In this document: positions 30,640 to 61,492 of the stretch, piece by piece | Layout: each line of letters starts with the position of its first letter | Position numbering within the stretch: the first letter of the stretch is position 1 | Origin: a virus | Direction: 5' to 3' (one strand) | DNA length: 64,000 bases | Virus record (IMG/VR): IMGVR_UViG_3300044695_007092 | Span: 11,321 to 75,320 of that record | Made by a program: the position numbers and the translations under genes | The notes under the pieces: generated by a model | Told to the model about the DNA's origin: nothing | Seen by the model: only the letters and a program-made list of their open reading frames with translations | Databases searched by the model: none

Positions 30640-31695
30640 ATGAACATGACTAGCGAGGAAGTCCTATGCCCTGAGCTTTACTATAAGTTAAAGAAGGTAT
30701 TCAGTAAAGTTTTGGTTTCAAATAGAGGCGTAGGCATGGTCCTAAGGCCAGACGGCGATGGAAGATCTGCACCGCTTGTAAGCGGGGAGCACTATAGAAT
30801 ATGCTGCCCCTGGTGTAATGATGACAGGTTTAGGTTGTATATAAATCATAGATGGTTTGAGAATAGGTTTATGGCAAACTGTTTCAACGAGACAGCTTGT
30901 ACAAAAGGAGAGCACGGTAAGGGAAGGCTTGATCAACTCCACGTATGGCTTTTTGGTACAACAGAAAAGATATTATTACCTGTAAGGCATGTAAAGGTAT
31001 CTGACTCTGAAGCTGCCGCTATGATGGAGTTTAGACCTCCGCAAGGATGTGTAGCTTTATCAAATCTGCCAGAAGAGCACGAAGCTTTGACTTACCTTAG
31101 AGGTAGAGGTTACGACCCTAGCCAGCTTGAGAAGTTTCTCGGACTAGGCTGGATAACTGACCAAGGGCTTCCAGCCCTGAAGAATAGGATATACATACCT
31201 ATATACCAGTCAGGTAAGCTTATGGGCTTCCAAGCTAGAATAGTAAAAGAAGATCCTGAGAGAGCACATCAGAAGTATATAAATCCAATGGGTATGCGTA
31301 AATCTACGTTGTTGTACAACTTAGACAATGCAATAAACCAGGAAGTACTGGTAGTGTGTGAAGGCCCCGCTGATGTATGGTCAGTAGGGCCTTCTGGTGT
31401 TGCCATATTTGGAAGCGACTGTAGCTATAACCAGCTTACTACTATAGGTAAGCATTTTAATGGAAAGACTATAGCCGTAGCCCTTGATGCAGATGCACAC
31501 GAAAAGGCTGATCAACTTGTTGTAAAGATACAGCAAGTAGTCCCAAGGTCCTTTGTAACAAAGATAGAAATGGCAGGAAACGAAGATCCTGGAAGCCTTA
31601 AATTAGAATTGTGGAGACGTCTCTACAATAAGCTGACCAGCAGTGGATTAGAAATACCAAAAGCAACAATGGAGTGGCCTTTACACCATGCATGA
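30640..31695 (+). CDS. DNA primase
   Basis: CPWC...CFNETAC zinc finger, YLRGRG, FQAR, KYIN, CEGPAD, LDAD TOPRIM. Confidence 0.88.
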   Translation: MNMTSEEVLCPELYYKLKKVFSKVLVSNRGVGMVLRPDGDGRSAPLVSGEHYRICCPWCNDDRFRLYINHRWFENRFMANCFNETACTKGEHGKGRLDQLHVWLFGTTEKILLPVRHVKVSDSEAAAMMEFRPPQGCVALSNLPEEHEALTYLRGRGYDPSQLEKFLGLGWITDQGLPALKNRIYIPIYQSGKLMGFQARIVKEDPERAHQKYINPMGMRKSTLLYNLDNAINQEVLVVCEGPADVWSVGPSGVAIFGSDCSYNQLTTIGKHFNGKTIAVALDADAHEKADQLVVKIQQVVPRSFVTKIEMAGNEDPGSLKLELWRRLYNKLTSSGLEIPKATMEWPLHHA

Positions 31696-34600
31696 AAAAC
31701 TAGATTTAACTAGCCACTGCACGTTTACGAATTTTGTGCAGCTTATAGAAAAATCTGGGCCTCTTTTACCGTGGCCCTTTATTTTTCCAAGTCAAGTAAC
31801 GACTATATTTAATAAACCAGGACCTGACTTCTTTCAGCTGGCCAAGGTTATGGCTAACTCTGAAGAGAAGCTAATAATAGATGCTTATCTAGATTTCCTA
31901 CACTTCAGGGCTCTTTACGACAGCAACTTTATGTTGCCTGTAATGTTTAACGGAAACATACTTGAAGCTAGGACTGTCCCTGGAAGCGGGTGGATGGCTG
32001 ATTGCAGGGTAGGCCCGTTCCGAAAGTATAAGTACATGGTAGTAGGTAAAGCTCCTACTGATGAGGACATATTCAAAGGTAAGATTACTTTTGGATCTAA
32101 CGCTTCTCTTCTCTGGGATATGCTATCTGTACACGGGTTTAACAAGTCAGACTTCTATCTAACCTGTGTGGTTAAACATAAGACACTAGACCCTTCGTCT
32201 AATGGATTAAAGTCTGCGTGGGTAAACAACTGCGCGGCTATATTAAAGCTTGAGATGATGCTAGCAAAGCCAGACTTTATATTGCTAACAGGCGACGAAG
32301 CCCTTAAAGCTGTTGCTGGAAGAGACAAGAAGCTTTCAGACGCAGTAGGAAAGGTATTTGATGTTCCTATCGCCTGTTTAGACGGTTCGGTTCATATAGC
32401 TAAAGCCGTAGCTGCTGTAAATCCTGCTTATGTTATGAGGTATCCAGAGCACTTAGACAGACTTAGGTCTTCTGTTTCTCATTTTGCAGCTCTGTGCAAA
32501 GGAGAAGAGTTTCTTTCAAATGAAACAGATATACAGCATTTCGATATAAGATCTGGCAGTGAGCTTGAAATAATAAAAAATGAAATACTAAAGGAAAGTA
32601 ATCCAGTTATAGCCATAGATCTAGAATGGCATGGAGACTGGCCTACGGAAAAAGACGCATACGTAAGAACTTTACAGCTTTCATGGAAGCCAAAGTTTGC
32701 CTGCAGCATAGTTATAAATAAAGCTGGAGGAGGACTGGTATTTGATAGCCCATCCCCTAATGGAATGGAAACTCTTAGAAGGATTCTAAACTCCATATTC
32801 TTTCCAGAAGATGGCAGGAAGGTTAGAGTGGTAGGTCATTACCTTACTGCAGATCTTCCCTGGCTTAAGTCTTTAGGTGTAGACCTGTCTAACCTGTTCA
32901 CGGCGCCAGACGACGATGACTTTAAAAATGTTAAGACTAATGCAGATATGGCTGCATATAGATTTGGTTTTGAGAAAACAGAATATGAAGGCGGATTTGA
33001 TACTTTACTGGCTGCCCACGCTGTAAATGAGACGGACATATTCAATCTAGAGGAGCAGGCAGTAAGATACTGCGGCGTTCCTAGGTGGGAAGGTCCTTTA
33101 GTTGAATGGCGTAAGAGGTACTGCAAAGAGAAGGGAATAAAAGACTCAGCTCTAGGCGGTTATGGGGATTGCCCAGATGAAGTATTAATTCCTTATGGTT
33201 GCTACGATGCCGACGTAACCAGAAGGTTATTTGACTATTATAACGGCACTCCTTCAGAGGAGGGCAAGCTCAATAAAGATAAGTACGGCAATAACTGTAG
33301 AGTTCCTTTTTGGACATCTATGAGAGCTTATCCTGCTTTTATAGAGATGAGGCAAAAAGGCATACTAATTGACCAGGCTAGAGTCAGAGAGCTTACTGAG
33401 TTGTACGAGGCTTTATATGAGAGCCTGCTTACTAAACTCAGAGTAATGATTAAATGGCCTGAGTTTAATGCTTCAAGTACGTTTCATAAGAGAGAGCTGC
33501 TATTCGGAGAGAAGCTCTCAGGAAAAAGAGATGCGGACGGTAATCCTGTTAGGCAGAGGCCTAATGAAGCTGTATGCCTTAACATACAGCCTTACAAAAG
33601 TACCGGAACCGGATCTAAAGGAAAACTATGGGCTGAGTTAGCTGCCAGAGGTACAGAGCATCTCTATACAGCGGCTACTGACAAGGAGTCTCTAACCATA
33701 TTGTCTGAAGGAAATCCTGTCGTAACAGCGCTTAGAGACGTAAGAGCTCTACACTATTTGAAGACTACTGTCCTAAGGTCCCCAGAATGTGATAAGGATG
33801 GAATAGAGCTCGTAGATGATGACGGAGAGCAAGTGTACGAGAAAGGCTTACTATCGTATATCAACTCAGACAATAGAGTTCGTTCTATGTTTAGTCAGGC
33901 TAAGGAAACCGGAAGGGCTTCTTCATCAAGACCAAACATGCAGAATCTAGGTAAGACTATAGAGGATAGGTATAAAGCTATCTTTTCAGCTCATGGAGCA
34001 GATCTGTCTCTTGAGTACTCTTACCCTCTCAGATCTGCCATTAGCGCTAGACCTGGGACTGTACTGGTAGAGGCTGACTACACTGGCGCTGAGCTAGCTA
34101 TTATGGCTTGGCAGTCTGGCGACAAGAATATGATTGATCATGTACGAAGGGCCAATCTTCCTGAAAATGACCCTGAGTACTACGACATTCATAGCAATGT
34201 TGCCGTTAGCACTTTTAAACTATCATGCCCTCCTACAAAGAAAGGACTAAAGGATGCAGGAAAGGGCGGGCTACGAACAGCGGCAAAGGCTGTAGTGTTC
34301 GGATATGCTTACGGCCAAGGAGCAGAGTCTACTGCTCGAAAAGCCAAGCAAGAAGGTGTAGAGATTACAGTAGGAGAGGCACAAGATCTTATCAACGGTC
34401 TTGTAGCCATGTATCCTGCCCTGCCTATATATTTCCAAGAGTGTAAGCTAAGGGTAAAAACTCCAGGATGGGTGTGTAATGCTTTCGGCAGATTCAGAAG
34501 ATTTGCCCCTAGTAACGACAGAGCTGTAATAGCTGAATATGAACGACAGAGCATGAATTTCCCTATTCAGTCATGCGTAGCTGACGCTGTATCGAGATCA

Positions 34601-34915
34601 TTAGATCATATATACAACTATAGAAAAAATGCACCAAAAGGAATGACTTACGATATCATCCTACAGGTTCATGACGCGGTTATTTTAGAGGTTCCTTACG
34701 AATGCGTACCTTGGGTAGTAGATGAAGTGCTGCCTACGTGCATGAGTAAGAACGTTAGTATATATTCTTGTAAATTAGACGGAACTAAGAGGCCAGGAGA
34801 CAGCGGTCCTTATAATCTAGGTATAGCGACTGAAGTATTTACCAAGTGGTCGATACCGCTTACAAAGAAGGACTGTGAAATTATGGGTATACCCGAGAGG
34901 TTTGCTCAACATTAG
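31688..34915 (+). CDS. Family A DNA polymerase with N-terminal UDG-like domain and 3'-5' exonuclease
   Basis: UDG-like VVGKAP; exonuclease IDLE and YGCYDAD; TGRASSSRPNMQN, ADYTGAEL, RTAAKAVVFGYAYG, QVHDA. Confidence 0.93.
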   Translation: MHEKLDLTSHCTFTNFVQLIEKSGPLLPWPFIFPSQVTTIFNKPGPDFFQLAKVMANSEEKLIIDAYLDFLHFRALYDSNFMLPVMFNGNILEARTVPGSGWMADCRVGPFRKYKYMVVGKAPTDEDIFKGKITFGSNASLLWDMLSVHGFNKSDFYLTCVVKHKTLDPSSNGLKSAWVNNCAAILKLEMMLAKPDFILLTGDEALKAVAGRDKKLSDAVGKVFDVPIACLDGSVHIAKAVAAVNPAYVMRYPEHLDRLRSSVSHFAALCKGEEFLSNETDIQHFDIRSGSELEIIKNEILKESNPVIAIDLEWHGDWPTEKDAYVRTLQLSWKPKFACSIVINKAGGGLVFDSPSPNGMETLRRILNSIFFPEDGRKVRVVGHYLTADLPWLKSLGVDLSNLFTAPDDDDFKNVKTNADMAAYRFGFEKTEYEGGFDTLLAAHAVNETDIFNLEEQAVRYCGVPRWEGPLVEWRKRYCKEKGIKDSALGGYGDCPDEVLIPYGCYDADVTRRLFDYYNGTPSEEGKLNKDKYGNNCRVPFWTSMRAYPAFIEMRQKGILIDQARVRELTELYEALYESLLTKLRVMIKWPEFNASSTFHKRELLFGEKLSGKRDADGNPVRQRPNEAVCLNIQPYKSTGTGSKGKLWAELAARGTEHLYTAATDKESLTILSEGNPVVTALRDVRALHYLKTTVLRSPECDKDGIELVDDDGEQVYEKGLLSYINSDNRVRSMFSQAKETGRASSSRPNMQNLGKTIEDRYKAIFSAHGADLSLEYSYPLRSAISARPGTVLVEADYTGAELAIMAWQSGDKNMIDHVRRANLPENDPEYYDIHSNVAVSTFKLSCPPTKKGLKDAGKGGLRTAAKAVVFGYAYGQGAESTARKAKQEGVEITVGEAQDLINGLVAMYPALPIYFQECKLRVKTPGWVCNAFGRFRRFAPSNDRAVIAEYERQSMNFPIQSCVADAVSRSLDHIYNYRKNAPKGMTYDIILQVHDAVILEVPYECVPWVVDEVLPTCMSKNVSIYSCKLDGTKRPGDSGPYNLGIATEVFTKWSIPLTKKDCEIMGIPERFAQH

Positions 34916-59633: not shown

Positions 59634-59999
59634 ATGGATGTTCTAGCTGTAAGACAAGAAGAGAAGCTGTGGGGCCGCAACCATATTATTCATTTGGATA
59701 ATTCCTTTCAGATCTGCCACATACATATCCTTAAAGGCGGATACTGCTCTAATCACTTTCATCAGAACAAGTGGAATCAATTCTATATTGTCTCGGGTAG
59801 ACTGATGGTCAGCTGCTATAACCCAGATGGTACTATAAAGAGCACCATCATTCTTAGACCTACCGAGTGCATCAAAGTACCACCTGGCTTAAACCATAAG
59901 TTTGAAGCTTTAGAAGAGACTGAAGCTTTGGAGATCTATTGGTCTGAGCTATCTGAGCACGATATTGTGCGTACAGACGTAGGCGGCATCAAGGCTTAA
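59634..59999 (+). CDS. Cupin, sugar isomerase-like
   Basis: KLWG, CSNHFHQNK, VPPGLNHKFEALE, DIVR. Confidence 0.8.
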   Translation: MDVLAVRQEEKLWGRNHIIHLDNSFQICHIHILKGGYCSNHFHQNKWNQFYIVSGRLMVSCYNPDGTIKSTIILRPTECIKVPPGLNHKFEALEETEALEIYWSELSEHDIVRTDVGGIKA

Positions 60000-60023
60000 T
60001 TCAACCCATAATAGTGTCATAAT
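59996..60023 (+). promoter_or_regulatory. Repeated promoter motif, copy A
   Basis: TTAATT-N16-CATAAT. Confidence 0.7.
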
Positions 60024-60224
60024 ATAGTGATACCGATAGGTATTAGCCCAATCGAGATAGCGGCTTTAAAGGTACTCGTAAGCCCAACTGACTGTTCCTG
60101 TCAGGTTGGTAATATGGCCTAGGAACCCTCCAGAGATAGACCAGCGTAATTGGTCTCTGGTGGAGGTAGAGCTGGTCTCCTCTATTGGTGGGAAGAATCT
60201 CCAAAGAAGGATGTAAATTCCTTC

Positions 60225-60251
60225 CGTCTTGAGCAGGACGTTAAACTGCTT
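60225..60251 (+). repeat. Pseudoknot motif copy 1
   Basis: CGTCTTGAGCAGGACGTTAAACTGCTT. Confidence 0.85.
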
Positions 60252-60272
60252 CATTTGTAGTTTATCGCTGGT

Positions 60273-60299
60273 GTCCTGAGTAAGACTTTAAACTGCTCA
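60273..60299 (+). repeat. Pseudoknot motif copy 2
   Basis: GTCCTGAGTAAGACTTTAAACTGCTCA. Confidence 0.85.
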
Positions 60300-60445
60300 T
60301 ATTTATGGCACCGGAGGTAAAGCCCTCTGGCCGTGCACGCCGGCAGCGTGGTAGGAAACCCACCAAGGAAATGGGGTATGGATGAAACTTCCATATATCT
60401 CCCTATACCCACGGGAGATATTGCTCGCACCTTGAGGGAAGGTGC

Positions 60446-60473
60446 CGTCCTGGAGCAGGACGTTAAACTGCTC
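60446..60473 (+). repeat. Pseudoknot motif copy 3
   Basis: CGTCCTGGAGCAGGACGTTAAACTGCTC directly before the T-run. Confidence 0.85.
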
Positions 60474-60495
60474 TTTTTTTAGCTATCACACACTC

Positions 60496-60523
60496 TTAAT
60501 TCAACTAATAAGTGCGTCATAAT
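60496..60523 (+). promoter_or_regulatory. Repeated promoter motif, copy B
   Basis: TTAATT-N16-CATAAT. Confidence 0.75.
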
Positions 60524-60594
60524 GATATGAAAGCGTAGGTATTAGGCAAGCTCGATAGCTTGTCACCTATGTGAGTATATACATGGAGGTTCTC

Positions 60595-60900
60595 ATGACT
60601 ACGTTAGTAAAATCCTTATTGCCTTGCGTAACGGTATCTCAGTCCCTGCGCAGAGAAGGTTTCAAAAGAGTGATAGGATATGGTTCGAACTCTGCAGAAA
60701 TCAGACCAAATAAAAGATTGTGCGGAGTAATGATTGATGTAGATGTACAGTCAGGAGTGTTCTCTTGTGTCCTGCTAAACGACTGGGACGATTCGTCCTG
60801 CATGTACATGAGCTCTAATTTGCAGCAAGACCAGTTCGCCAGCGAAAGCTGGAGTGAATTGGTACAGTGGATAAAGCAATCCCCAAGAAGGATTGCTTAA
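60595..60900 (+). CDS. Hypothetical protein (cassette B payload)
   Basis: GGAGG RBS. Confidence 0.6.
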   Translation: MTTLVKSLLPCVTVSQSLRREGFKRVIGYGSNSAEIRPNKRLCGVMIDVDVQSGVFSCVLLNDWDDSSCMYMSSNLQQDQFASESWSELVQWIKQSPRRIA

Positions 60901-60903
60901 TTT

Positions 60904-60953
60904 AAGAAACACATCATGCCTTCGGGTGTGGTGTGTTTCTTTTTTTAGCTATC
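60904..60953 (+). terminator. UUCG-capped terminator ending T7-AGCTATC
   Basis: 17-bp stem, cTTCGg loop. Confidence 0.9.
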
Positions 60954-60973
60954 ACACATCCTATCTCGTTATG

Positions 60974-61001
60974 TTAATTGGACTTATAAACGCGTCATAA
61001 T
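60974..61001 (+). promoter_or_regulatory. Repeated promoter motif, copy C
   Basis: TTAATT-N16-CATAAT. Confidence 0.75.
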
Positions 61002-61070
61002 AGTATGAAAGGATAGGTTATCAGTCATCTAACAGGTGACGCCTAATCTTAGTTGTTCATGGAGGCTAAT

Positions 61071-61334
61071 ATGAACATGAATATTGCGAATTATGTACTT
61101 TTAGACAAGCTCTCTAATTTGTATGCAGGTGATAACTGCGACGGGCTGGTATTCGTCGCAACTGTAGACCTTGATGGTGGTGATCGTTTTAAGTATGCTC
61201 CTTGGGTGCCAGCCACCAAGTCTCAAGAGGACGTCTATTGGGTCGCCCGTAAAAGTGCAGAGGATTTTGGTAAGGAGTCTTTCTGCGCTGAAACTGGTGA
61301 GTCATCATACCACTGCACCTGCGGGTGGCATTAA
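61071..61334 (+). CDS. Hypothetical protein (cassette C payload)
   Basis: GGAGG RBS; C-terminal HCTCGWH. Confidence 0.6.
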   Translation: MNMNIANYVLLDKLSNLYAGDNCDGLVFVATVDLDGGDRFKYAPWVPATKSQEDVYWVARKSAEDFGKESFCAETGESSYHCTCGWH

Positions 61335-61338
61335 AATG

Positions 61339-61365
61339 CGTCCTGAGCCGACGTTAAAGGGCTCA
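61339..61365 (+). repeat. Pseudoknot motif copy 4 (covarying)
   Basis: CGTCCTGAGCCGACGTTAAAGGGCTCA. Confidence 0.8.
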
Positions 61366-61388
61366 CAGCGTATGAGCGTATGCTGTTG

Positions 61389-61435
61389 ATCAACCTTACT
61401 CCTGGGCGGAGTGAGGTTGATTTTTTTTAGCTATC
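61389..61435 (+). terminator. Terminator ending T8-AGCTATC
   Basis: ATCAACCTTACTCC/GGAGTGAGGTTGAT stem. Confidence 0.88.
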
Positions 61436-61492
61436 AGACACTCCTATCCTAGGTTATCATTCAAGTAACTACTTTAATGAGGTGCCAACGAT

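Follow-up and report, generated by a model that had tools for sequence, protein, structure and literature searches.

Four copies of a pseudoknot of about 27 nucleotides (nt), found close together on one strand of a lake-water virus record, are members of a large RNA family that is carried by tailed phages of hosts in many bacterial phyla and is covered by no Rfam family. The DNA analysed here, which we call the window, is a stretch of 64 kb that forms the last part of the 75-kb IMG/VR virus record IMGVR_UViG_3300044695_007092 (CheckV completeness 36%). All four copies lie on the + strand, at positions 60226-60251, 60273-60299, 60447-60474 and 61340-61365 of the window, and an earlier reading of the DNA from its letters alone (the sequence-only reading) had proposed that they form a covarying H-type pseudoknot. 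Comparison of 92 instances from across the family strongly supports that proposal. As to function, we tentatively favor, at a probability of roughly 45%, a boundary element at the 3' end of the upstream transcript unit, which would act as the stem of a terminator where a run of U residues follows and as a structure at a processed 3' end elsewhere.

Exactly as first described, each window copy pairs (C)GUC with GAC(G) in a short stem 1, has UUAAA as its linker and forms a stem 2 of 6-7 bp that differs between copies. Copy 1 (60226-60251), C-GUC-UU-GAGCAG-GAC-G-UUAAA-CUGCUU, pairs CGUC with GACG in stem 1 and GAGCAG with CUGCUU in stem 2; it comes after a noncoding RNA module (module A) and directly touches the last hairpin of that module. 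Copy 2 (60273-60299), GUC-C-UGAGUA-A-GAC-U-UUAAA-C-UGCUCA, with stem 1 GUC/GAC and stem 2 UGAGUA/UGCUCA, starts 21 nt past the end of copy 1 and just 5' of a second noncoding module (module B), and the same paired arrangement of copies 1 and 2 is present in a relative, L170. Copy 4 (61340-61365), C-GUC-C-UGAGCC-GAC-G-UUAAA-G-GGCUCA, is located in the 3' untranslated region of the open reading frame (ORF) at 61071-61334, where it starts 5 nt past the TAA stop codon at 61332-61334; an ordinary terminator follows about 22 nt 3' of it. In stem 2 of this copy (UGAGCC/GGCUCA), the compensatory A-U to C-G change that had been pointed out does alter both sides of the pair. From start to start, the copies are spaced by 47, 174 and 893 nt.

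Copy 3 (60447-60474), C-GUC-CU-GGAGCAG-GAC-G-UUAAA-CUGCUCU, has the features of an intrinsic (Rho-independent) terminator: a 7-bp stem 2 (GGAGCAG/CUGCUCU), a loop of 9 nt and, directly after, a run of seven U residues that extends to 60481. Copies 1, 2 and 4 have no such U-run. To judge from these features, stem 2 of copy 3 would serve as the intrinsic-terminator stem. The consensus terminator scanner accepts loops of up to 8 nt and therefore missed it. Copy 3 also fills the same slot, before the same TTTTTTTAGCTATCAC, as the ordinary hairpin terminators at 60904-60941 and 61388-61422.

The sequence GACKTTAAA occurs eight times in the window, against 1.3 occurrences expected. A structure descriptor whose only demands were stem 1, an A-rich linker and a stem 2 of five or more pairs matched four times within 1.14 kb, where the rate in reversed sequence predicts about 0.3 for the whole window. 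A covariance model (R2) built from 82 instances of the family, with the window copies and the window relatives left out, recovers exactly the four copies, scoring copy 2 at 41.8, copy 1 at 35.6, copy 3 at 28.0 and copy 4 at 21.9 bits (E values of 3e-9 to 8e-4), with the next match in the 64 kb at 8.6 bits. Folded one at a time as nested structures, the copies are not significant (z-scores of -0.2 to -1.7); the support for the fold comes from comparison across phages and not from the folding of single copies.

When the same descriptor was applied to 1.37 Mb of fetched phage and prophage loci, it found 183 unique matches, compared with seven in the reversed sequence. Among the matches listed in a pattern scan of IMG/VR, the family consensus is GUCCUGAGYAWGACKUUAAACUGCUCA, often with several copies per contig. 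The motif is 26-29 nt long, with a stem 1 of 3-4 bp that is usually GUC/GAC, a loop 1 of 1-2 nt, an A-rich linker of the form (N)UUAAA, and a stem 2 of 5-7 bp that is usually UGAGYA/UGCUCA, yet covaries. In the alignment of 92 instances, 93% of the cells are paired, and two-sided changes occur in 46 cells versus 9.5 in shuffles and affect seven of the ten pairs. None of 500 shuffles reached the covariation score, and no slid structure comes near it. The fourth pair of stem 1, which was left free in both the search pattern and the descriptor, is CG in 51 instances, UG in 16, AU in nine, UA in three, GC in two, GU in one and some other combination in ten. Stem 2 occurs as UGAGCA/UGCUCA, UGGACA/UGUCUA, UGAGAA/UUCUCA, GAGUGU/GCACUC, AUCACA/UGUGA(G) and in other versions, and later searches in which stem 1 was left free also found GAC/GUC, GAG/CUC, CUC/GAG, CAAC/GUUG and CAC/GUG in that position. 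The predicted H-type pseudoknot is thus well supported by comparison. By analogy with solved ribozyme structures, its A-rich linker would lie in the minor groove of stem 1. Several positions of the motif are invariant among the 92 instances; copies met incidentally in the same loci are more variable, and stem 2 varies freely in two of these loci (L035 and L105).

The named phages that carry the motif include those of Staphylococcus (83 records), Lactobacillus, Mycobacterium, Arthrobacter, Nostoc, Microcystis, Synechococcus, Moorella and others, and the motif lies nearly always within unannotated intergenic DNA. An exact 25-nt consensus was found in 42 contigs of species-representative genomes, mostly phage-like contigs of metagenome-assembled genomes, with Bacillota, Saccharibacteria, Thermodesulfobacteriota, Bacteroidota, Omnitrophota and Methylococcus among their labels. 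Grouped by phylum, the hosts of the phages belong to Bacillota, Actinomycetota and Cyanobacteria, and Saccharibacteria, Thermodesulfobacteriota and other phyla are represented by phage-like contigs binned to them. The motif sequence was not found in the papers searched; it may have been seen earlier, in the supplement to Weinberg 2017 or in Weinberg 2015.

In orientation relative to genes, 159 of the 183 copies (87%) share the strand of their flanking ORFs. The distance from stop codon to motif has a sharp peak at 6-7 nt (43 cases), with 18 further cases at 8-9 nt and five below 6 nt. A ribosome with the stop codon in its A site would unwind any structure nearer than about 6 nt. Copies near a stop codon only (51) outnumber those near a start codon only (18). 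A U-run follows the motif in 38 of the 183 copies (21%), and the arrangement of pseudoknot, seven U residues and AGCTAT is the standard terminator after ORFs in the relatives L163, L164, L166 and L168. On the other side of the motif, the distance to the next start codon peaks at 15-24 nt, and compact contigs have either a G-poor leader of this length there or a Shine-Dalgarno sequence that abuts the motif.

Self-cleaving ribozymes and tRNAs adjoin the motif in a subset of loci. In a contig of Firmicutes bacterium CAG:95 (L150, 2089-5670, minus strand), each of four successive intergenic regions reads as a stop codon, 7-13 nt, the motif, 1-2 nt and a type III hammerhead ribozyme. Two of these four hammerheads pass the Rfam cut-off, and the cleavage site lies about 5-8 nt past the motif. 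Stem II is nearly identical among the four (UCGC-UGAAAAUU-GCGA). A directional search of IMG/VR found six more contigs with the complete motif and then hammerhead sequences, five of them complete type III hammerheads and the sixth (L184) having the hammerhead core motifs in a different order. When IMG/VR was searched for the reverse order, hammerhead and then motif, none of the 34 pattern matches contained a true motif. In another contig (L135), a pistol ribozyme (54 bits) lies directly 3' of the motif, with a twister ribozyme in the neighboring spacer. This 5-kb contig carries, on its minus strand, a dense cluster of small RNAs between short genes, with three motif-type copies, one of which is fused to the pistol, and a twister of type P5 (3355-3448, 4541-4590 and 4851-4883); two of the three copies score below 30 bits with a second model, R1.

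With respect to tRNAs, the single copy found by the descriptor in Nostoc phage NMeng1 ends 3 nt before a tRNA-like gene, and in 15 of 20 pattern matches from IMG/VR a tRNA starts about 1-6 nt past stem 2 of the motif, several of them reading ORF stop, motif, tRNA. Once a type III hammerhead or RNase P had cut, the motif would no longer be joined to the downstream RNA, and therefore its role at such sites must lie with the upstream RNA. The pseudoknot is also seen as a spacer within phage tRNA arrays (L240; L241, 11413-11480; L245; L264; L276), where it starts 0-1 nt past the discriminator base (L240 and L241) or about 20 nt past it (L245, L264 and L276). Where it abuts the tRNA, no CCA is encoded between the two, and the next tRNA begins 5-8 nt past its end.

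In the window, the region 59990-61440 that holds the four copies is a series of short transcription units that begin with a promoter-like TTAATTCAAC...GCGTCATAAT and close with a terminator and then TTTTTTTAGCTATCAC. The promoter-like module, TTAATTCAAC-N-ATAA-N3-GCGTCATAAT, is repeated at 59998-60035, 60497-60530 and 60967-61003 and is kept in all of the relatives that were fetched; a sigma-70 consensus scan makes no call there. The sequence TTTTTTTAGCTATCACAC, directly after a terminator, precedes the module at 60497-60530 and at 60967-61003. The terminator in the slot equivalent to copy 3 is an ordinary hairpin followed by TTTTTTTAGCTATCACAC (60904-60949, + strand), and the one 3' of copy 4, found by the terminator scan, spans 61388-61430, also on the + strand. 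The ORFs that come after the repeat copies have no match in Pfam, PHROG or the PADLOC defense library. More widely, the + strand carries most of the large ORFs of the window, which include a replication module with an SbcC-like ATPase, a helicase and a family A DNA polymerase fused to a uracil-DNA glycosylase domain. The fusion is encoded by a 1075-amino-acid ORF at 31688-34915, with the uracil-DNA glycosylase superfamily domain at residues 110-255 and the polymerase domain at residues 663-1022. A BLAST search of the GenBank phages with the repeat region found no relative of the window phage.

The two noncoding modules belong to an array that is itself structured (fold z-score of -4.5 for 60030-60480). 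Module A (60040-60224, + strand), which like module B has no ORF or tRNA, lies 3' of a promoter-like TTAATTCAAC...GTCATAAT. Module B (60304-60445, + strand; fold z-score of -3.1) is closed by GGCACC/GGUGCC and includes a AUGGAUGAAACUUCCAU hairpin that is conserved in relatives; modules related to it are present in L163, L165 and L170. Arrays of structured noncoding modules of about 100-180 nt are seen at 60040-60445 of the window, L165:3196-3830, L170:7775-8240 and L163:7880-8250, and several of the modules have a GUGGAUGAAACUUCCAC hairpin in common. Related phages gain, lose and reorder these modules, with pseudoknot copies at the joints. None of the modules matches Rfam, a tRNA or the tmRNA, and no tRNA or tmRNA was found in the window or in its relatives. 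Because the contig has no reverse transcriptase, a template array of the UG27 type is not established for the noncoding array.

Contigs from four lake-water RNA libraries, derived from close relatives (95-99% alike), cover 60051-60250, that is, module A and copy 1, and include no flanking genes. Such assembled contigs carry no information on RNA ends, strand or level, and DNA carry-over is possible; their coverage suggests expression of the noncoding array as an RNA more plentiful than the mRNAs around it. In two RNA-library contigs, Illumina adapter sequence abuts positions 60066 and 60078 within module A, which is at most a hint of abundant short fragments.

The reading that we favor brings the contexts of the motif together as follows. 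The motif is transcribed with the genes and follows either a stop codon or the end of a noncoding RNA, as closely as the terminating ribosome permits. Where a U-run is present, as in copy 3, stem 2 would act as the hairpin of an intrinsic terminator. Where it is absent, the RNA would be cut a few nucleotides downstream, whether by a self-cleaving ribozyme, by RNase P at an adjoining tRNA or by a host endonuclease in an unstructured spacer, and the pseudoknot would stay at the new 3' end, where so compact a fold would hinder 3'-to-5' exonucleases. A U-run terminator would give the same geometry, with the motif a few nucleotides from the 3' end of the upstream RNA. Within the window, copies 1 and 2 would punctuate the expressed noncoding array, copy 3 would close it and copy 4 would cap a small ORF. 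Two of the functions floated in the sequence-only reading, a nuclease-blocking cap and a processing signal, fit these contexts; the third, mimicry of an antitoxin, does not, for reasons given below. In a broader form, which is possible though less likely than not, a 27-nt triplex pseudoknot shared by tailed phages of many bacterial phyla, and built on the scaffold of the pistol and pseudoknot-hammerhead ribozymes, would be a general 3'-end cap, the bacterial counterpart of exonuclease-resistant viral RNAs, and also a pseudoknot-dependent terminator, and this would explain where the ribozymes are placed. Such a cap would set the boundaries of cistrons and noncoding RNAs, and ribozyme placement in phages would amount to cutting just behind it.

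A number of observations weigh against a role at 3' ends. Copy 2 is at the 5' side of module B, and therefore a purely 3'-end role leaves this copy unaccounted for; the ordinary terminator beyond copy 4 makes a second protective structure there look redundant; and the RNA contigs, blind as they are to RNA ends, do not stop at copy 1 but run on into the module that comes next in a relative. Beyond the window, few family members adjoin a ribozyme. A position 3' of a tRNA also occurs, in about eight true cases, five of them between two tRNAs, and since the motif is found after tRNAs as well as before them, the order relative to tRNAs is not decisive. In many compact phages, either the distance to the next start codon is fixed at 15-24 nt or a Shine-Dalgarno sequence abuts the motif, which fits a role for the downstream gene equally well. 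Firmicutes prophages carry the motif 60-190 nt upstream of scaffold genes, and in Lactobacillus the copy upstream of the scaffold gene comes just after another terminator. Finally, most of the instances were fetched by sequence patterns, so that the conservation of the sequence is overstated.

The motif might instead be a 5'-UTR element of the downstream gene, a stable pseudoknot that insulates the ribosome-binding region from the sequence before it and from terminating ribosomes, provides a standby or enhancer site, or protects the 5' end of a processed mRNA. In six loci that look T7-like (L058, L066, L015, L039, L042 and L084), the motif is followed by a G-poor, CA-rich leader of 19-28 nt without a Shine-Dalgarno sequence and then by ATG, and in four others (L035, L092, L094 and L102) the Shine-Dalgarno sequence starts 0-7 nt past the motif. 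The peak of start distances at 15-24 nt and the position upstream of scaffold and capsid genes, which are highly expressed, in Firmicutes prophages agree with such a role. We nevertheless consider it unlikely, given that the transcripts of copies 3 and 4 and of the 38 copies with a U-run include no gene downstream of the motif, that window copies 1-3 flank noncoding RNA, that stop-only copies exceed start-only copies by 51 to 18, and that a type III hammerhead or RNase P would sever the motif from the very RNA it was supposed to serve. To the idea that the motif is the binding site of a conserved factor, be it part of the ribosome, RNA polymerase or an RNA-binding protein of the phage, serving as a temporal operator or acting on the terminating ribosome (for instance by promoting re-initiation or blocking the loading of Rho), we give little credence. 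The sequence is conserved across phyla beyond the apparent need of a purely mechanical element, and the 6-nt minimum would put the fold at the mRNA-channel entrance of a ribosome with the stop codon in its A site; against this, no shared protein was identified among carriers that differ in gene sets and hosts, no ribosome would be close to the copies that adjoin noncoding RNAs and tRNAs, the conservation itself is inflated by the search patterns, and the pattern-free copies in L035 and L105 vary freely in stem 2.

The invariant positions in the 92 instances, the genomic niche occupied in common with self-cleaving ribozymes, and the combination of stem, pseudoknot, A-rich linker and CUGAG-type loops also found in pistol could mean that the motif is itself catalytic or ligand-binding, either a minimal relative of the pistol and pseudoknot-hammerhead ribozymes or an aptamer embedded in a terminator. 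The chance of this appears slight: the motif lacks P2, P3, the G-U cleavage junction and the catalytic purines of pistol as well as the CUGAUGA/GAAA core of the hammerhead, it matches no ribozyme or riboswitch family even at E values up to 10, and it would be redundant where it stands in tandem with a complete ribozyme. We know of no natural self-cleaving RNA as small as 27 nt. It is very improbable that the DNA itself is what matters, as a boundary sequence at which phages recombine and exchange modules, the RNA fold being a by-product. The motif does lie at module borders, with copies at the joints of shuffled noncoding modules in relatives, and an identical 25-mer occurs in unrelated phages. 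Covariation speaks against a recombination linker, however, because such linkers need identity, and the compensatory changes in both stems together with the 87% strand bias indicate selection on a transcribed, folded strand. Phage phiTE provides a known precedent for mimicry of a type III antitoxin (ToxI-like), here to neutralize a host abortive-infection nuclease, yet this explanation is barely credible for the present motif. It has in its favor size and pseudoknot nature only, while the spacings in the window form no regular tandem array, there is no ToxN-, CptN- or TenpN-like gene nearby and no PADLOC, Pfam or PHROG match, and across phages of many phyla the motif lies between ordinary genes and is tied to stop codons, terminators, ribozymes and tRNAs.

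When adjacent to a hammerhead or pistol ribozyme, the motif is always 5' of it, and it is mostly 5' of tRNAs, which gives the 3'-boundary reading a concrete model: a cut and a protected 3' end. This bears on the role of small self-cleaving ribozymes in phages and on cistron stability outside T7 and T4. If the model is right, the motif would be a compact, host-independent part with which synthetic transcripts could be stabilized or insulated. Even if the model is wrong, the candidate regulatory RNA GP20-b and the pistol fold are linked by a large family of structured RNAs that Rfam lacks. Cultivable carriers exist among the phages of Staphylococcus, Lactobacillus, Nostoc and Mycobacterium.

Among known systems, the type III antitoxins ToxI, CptI and TenpI resemble the window motif in being small, repeated, pseudoknotted RNAs with a link to phages; unlike it, they form regular tandem repeats beside a toxin gene and are processed by the toxin, and the window has none of these features. 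Elements of phages T7 and lambda offer a functional analogy, since they too are structured and lie either between cistrons or immediately behind a gene. The intergenic RNase III sites and 3' stabilizing hairpins of T7, and sib retroregulation in lambda, define and stabilize mRNA 3' ends. They are long imperfect hairpins recognized by RNase III, whereas the motif is a 27-nt pseudoknot. Being an RNase P substrate, as a mimic of the tRNA acceptor stem, was considered for the motif and rejected, as its 5' and 3' strands emerge from opposite ends of the helical stack.

Compact triplex H-type pseudoknots of plant viruses, such as the luteovirus frameshift element and the pseudoknots of upstream pseudoknot domains, are similar in size and architecture. 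The consensus of one of these, SBWMV2_UPD-PKb (GGCGUUC..ACGUUUAAACUGUAGG), aligns to a variant copy in the relative L165 at 19.1 bits, against a cut-off of 39; because the score is sub-threshold and the viruses are unrelated, we regard this likeness as convergence. The position of the motif 5-8 nt after stop codons resembles the spacing of recoding signals. The spacing of copy 4 (5 nt) and that of the family (mode 6-7 nt) fit, but the frame after its stop codon closes after three codons, and copies 1-3 follow no ORF at all. No slippery site was noticed upstream of the copies that were inspected, in the course of which no systematic search was made.

At the gathering cut-offs, Rfam has no match anywhere in the window, and no Rfam 15 family reaches its threshold; permissive scans returned chance matches to microRNAs and small RNAs and, on copy 4, a match to GP20-b, and nothing else. 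GP20-b (RF03003; Weinberg et al. 2017; mentioned in PMC10690425) is a candidate cis-regulatory RNA upstream of phage GP20/scaffold genes. Its best score in the window, on copy 4 only, is 14.5 bits against a gathering cut-off of 36.2, and it matches neither copies 1-3 nor the consensus copies in L066; nor was it detected in the motif-carrying Staphylococcus and Lactobacillus phage records or in three genomes with the motif. Its consensus, gGuC-agc-ccgca-GgCgUAAAAg-ugcgg, has the layout of the motif, namely GUC, a short loop, a 5-bp stem, GRCG, U(U/A)AAA and a return strand, and aligns to copy 4 including the 3' AGCGUA. A second hairpin and a conserved 3' tail set GP20-b apart from the motif. 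The window copies do not lie upstream of a GP20/Phage_scaffold gene; those of the carriers L120 and L140 do, and Lactobacillus phiEF-1.1 and a Peptoniphilus prophage have the motif upstream of genes of PF06810 (Phage_scaffold), which we take to be the family formerly named Phage_GP20. GP20-b is probably a specialized relative of the motif, and the novelty that had been claimed for the motif stands at the level of Rfam cut-offs and is qualified by this sub-threshold relative. In Firmicutes phages (L118:2501-2540; L120:2506-2545; many IMG/VR matches), many copies of the motif have a U-rich run and a conserved AUGCA(C) behind them, as in UUUUAUUAUGCAC, and another common variant has GUUAAAAGGCUYA at its end. 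Both may be subfamilies with an extra 3' element, as in GP20-b.

Structural parallels are also found among the ribozymes themselves. Hammerheads do adjoin the motif, but not as part of it: the core of CUGAUGA and GAAA and the three helices are absent from it, and the CUGAG(Y)A of the motif, tried as a hammerhead sequence, fails at the essential G8 position. Pistol ribozymes are phage-associated (PMC4604425), and in the crystal structures of pistol and of the pseudoknot-hammerhead a short stem has a loop that forms a 6-bp pseudoknot, with an A-rich linker bound in the minor groove of that stem through A-minor triples (PMC11300833). The linkers of these two ribozymes read UUAAA(UAG) or AUAAAA after the stem. 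The motif has no match to pistol (RF02679) at E values up to 10 and is without P2, P3, the G-U cleavage junction and the catalytic nucleotides, and its linker, unlike that of pistol, passes straight into the 3' strand of the pseudoknot. What it does have is the P1 stem, the pseudoknot with the P1 loop (5-7 bp in stem 2 versus 6 in pistol) and the A-rich linker. The pistols seen here, GUCG-ACUGAG-CGAC-AUUAAAUAG and CUCG-UCUGAG-CGAG-GGUAAAUAG, bear out the remark, made from the sequence alone, that P1 of pistol is likewise followed by UUAAA: real pistols consist of a stem, a CUGAG-type loop, the returning stem strand and then (A/G)UUAAAUAG, and this loop and the UUAAAUAG or GUAAAUAG linker are common to both.

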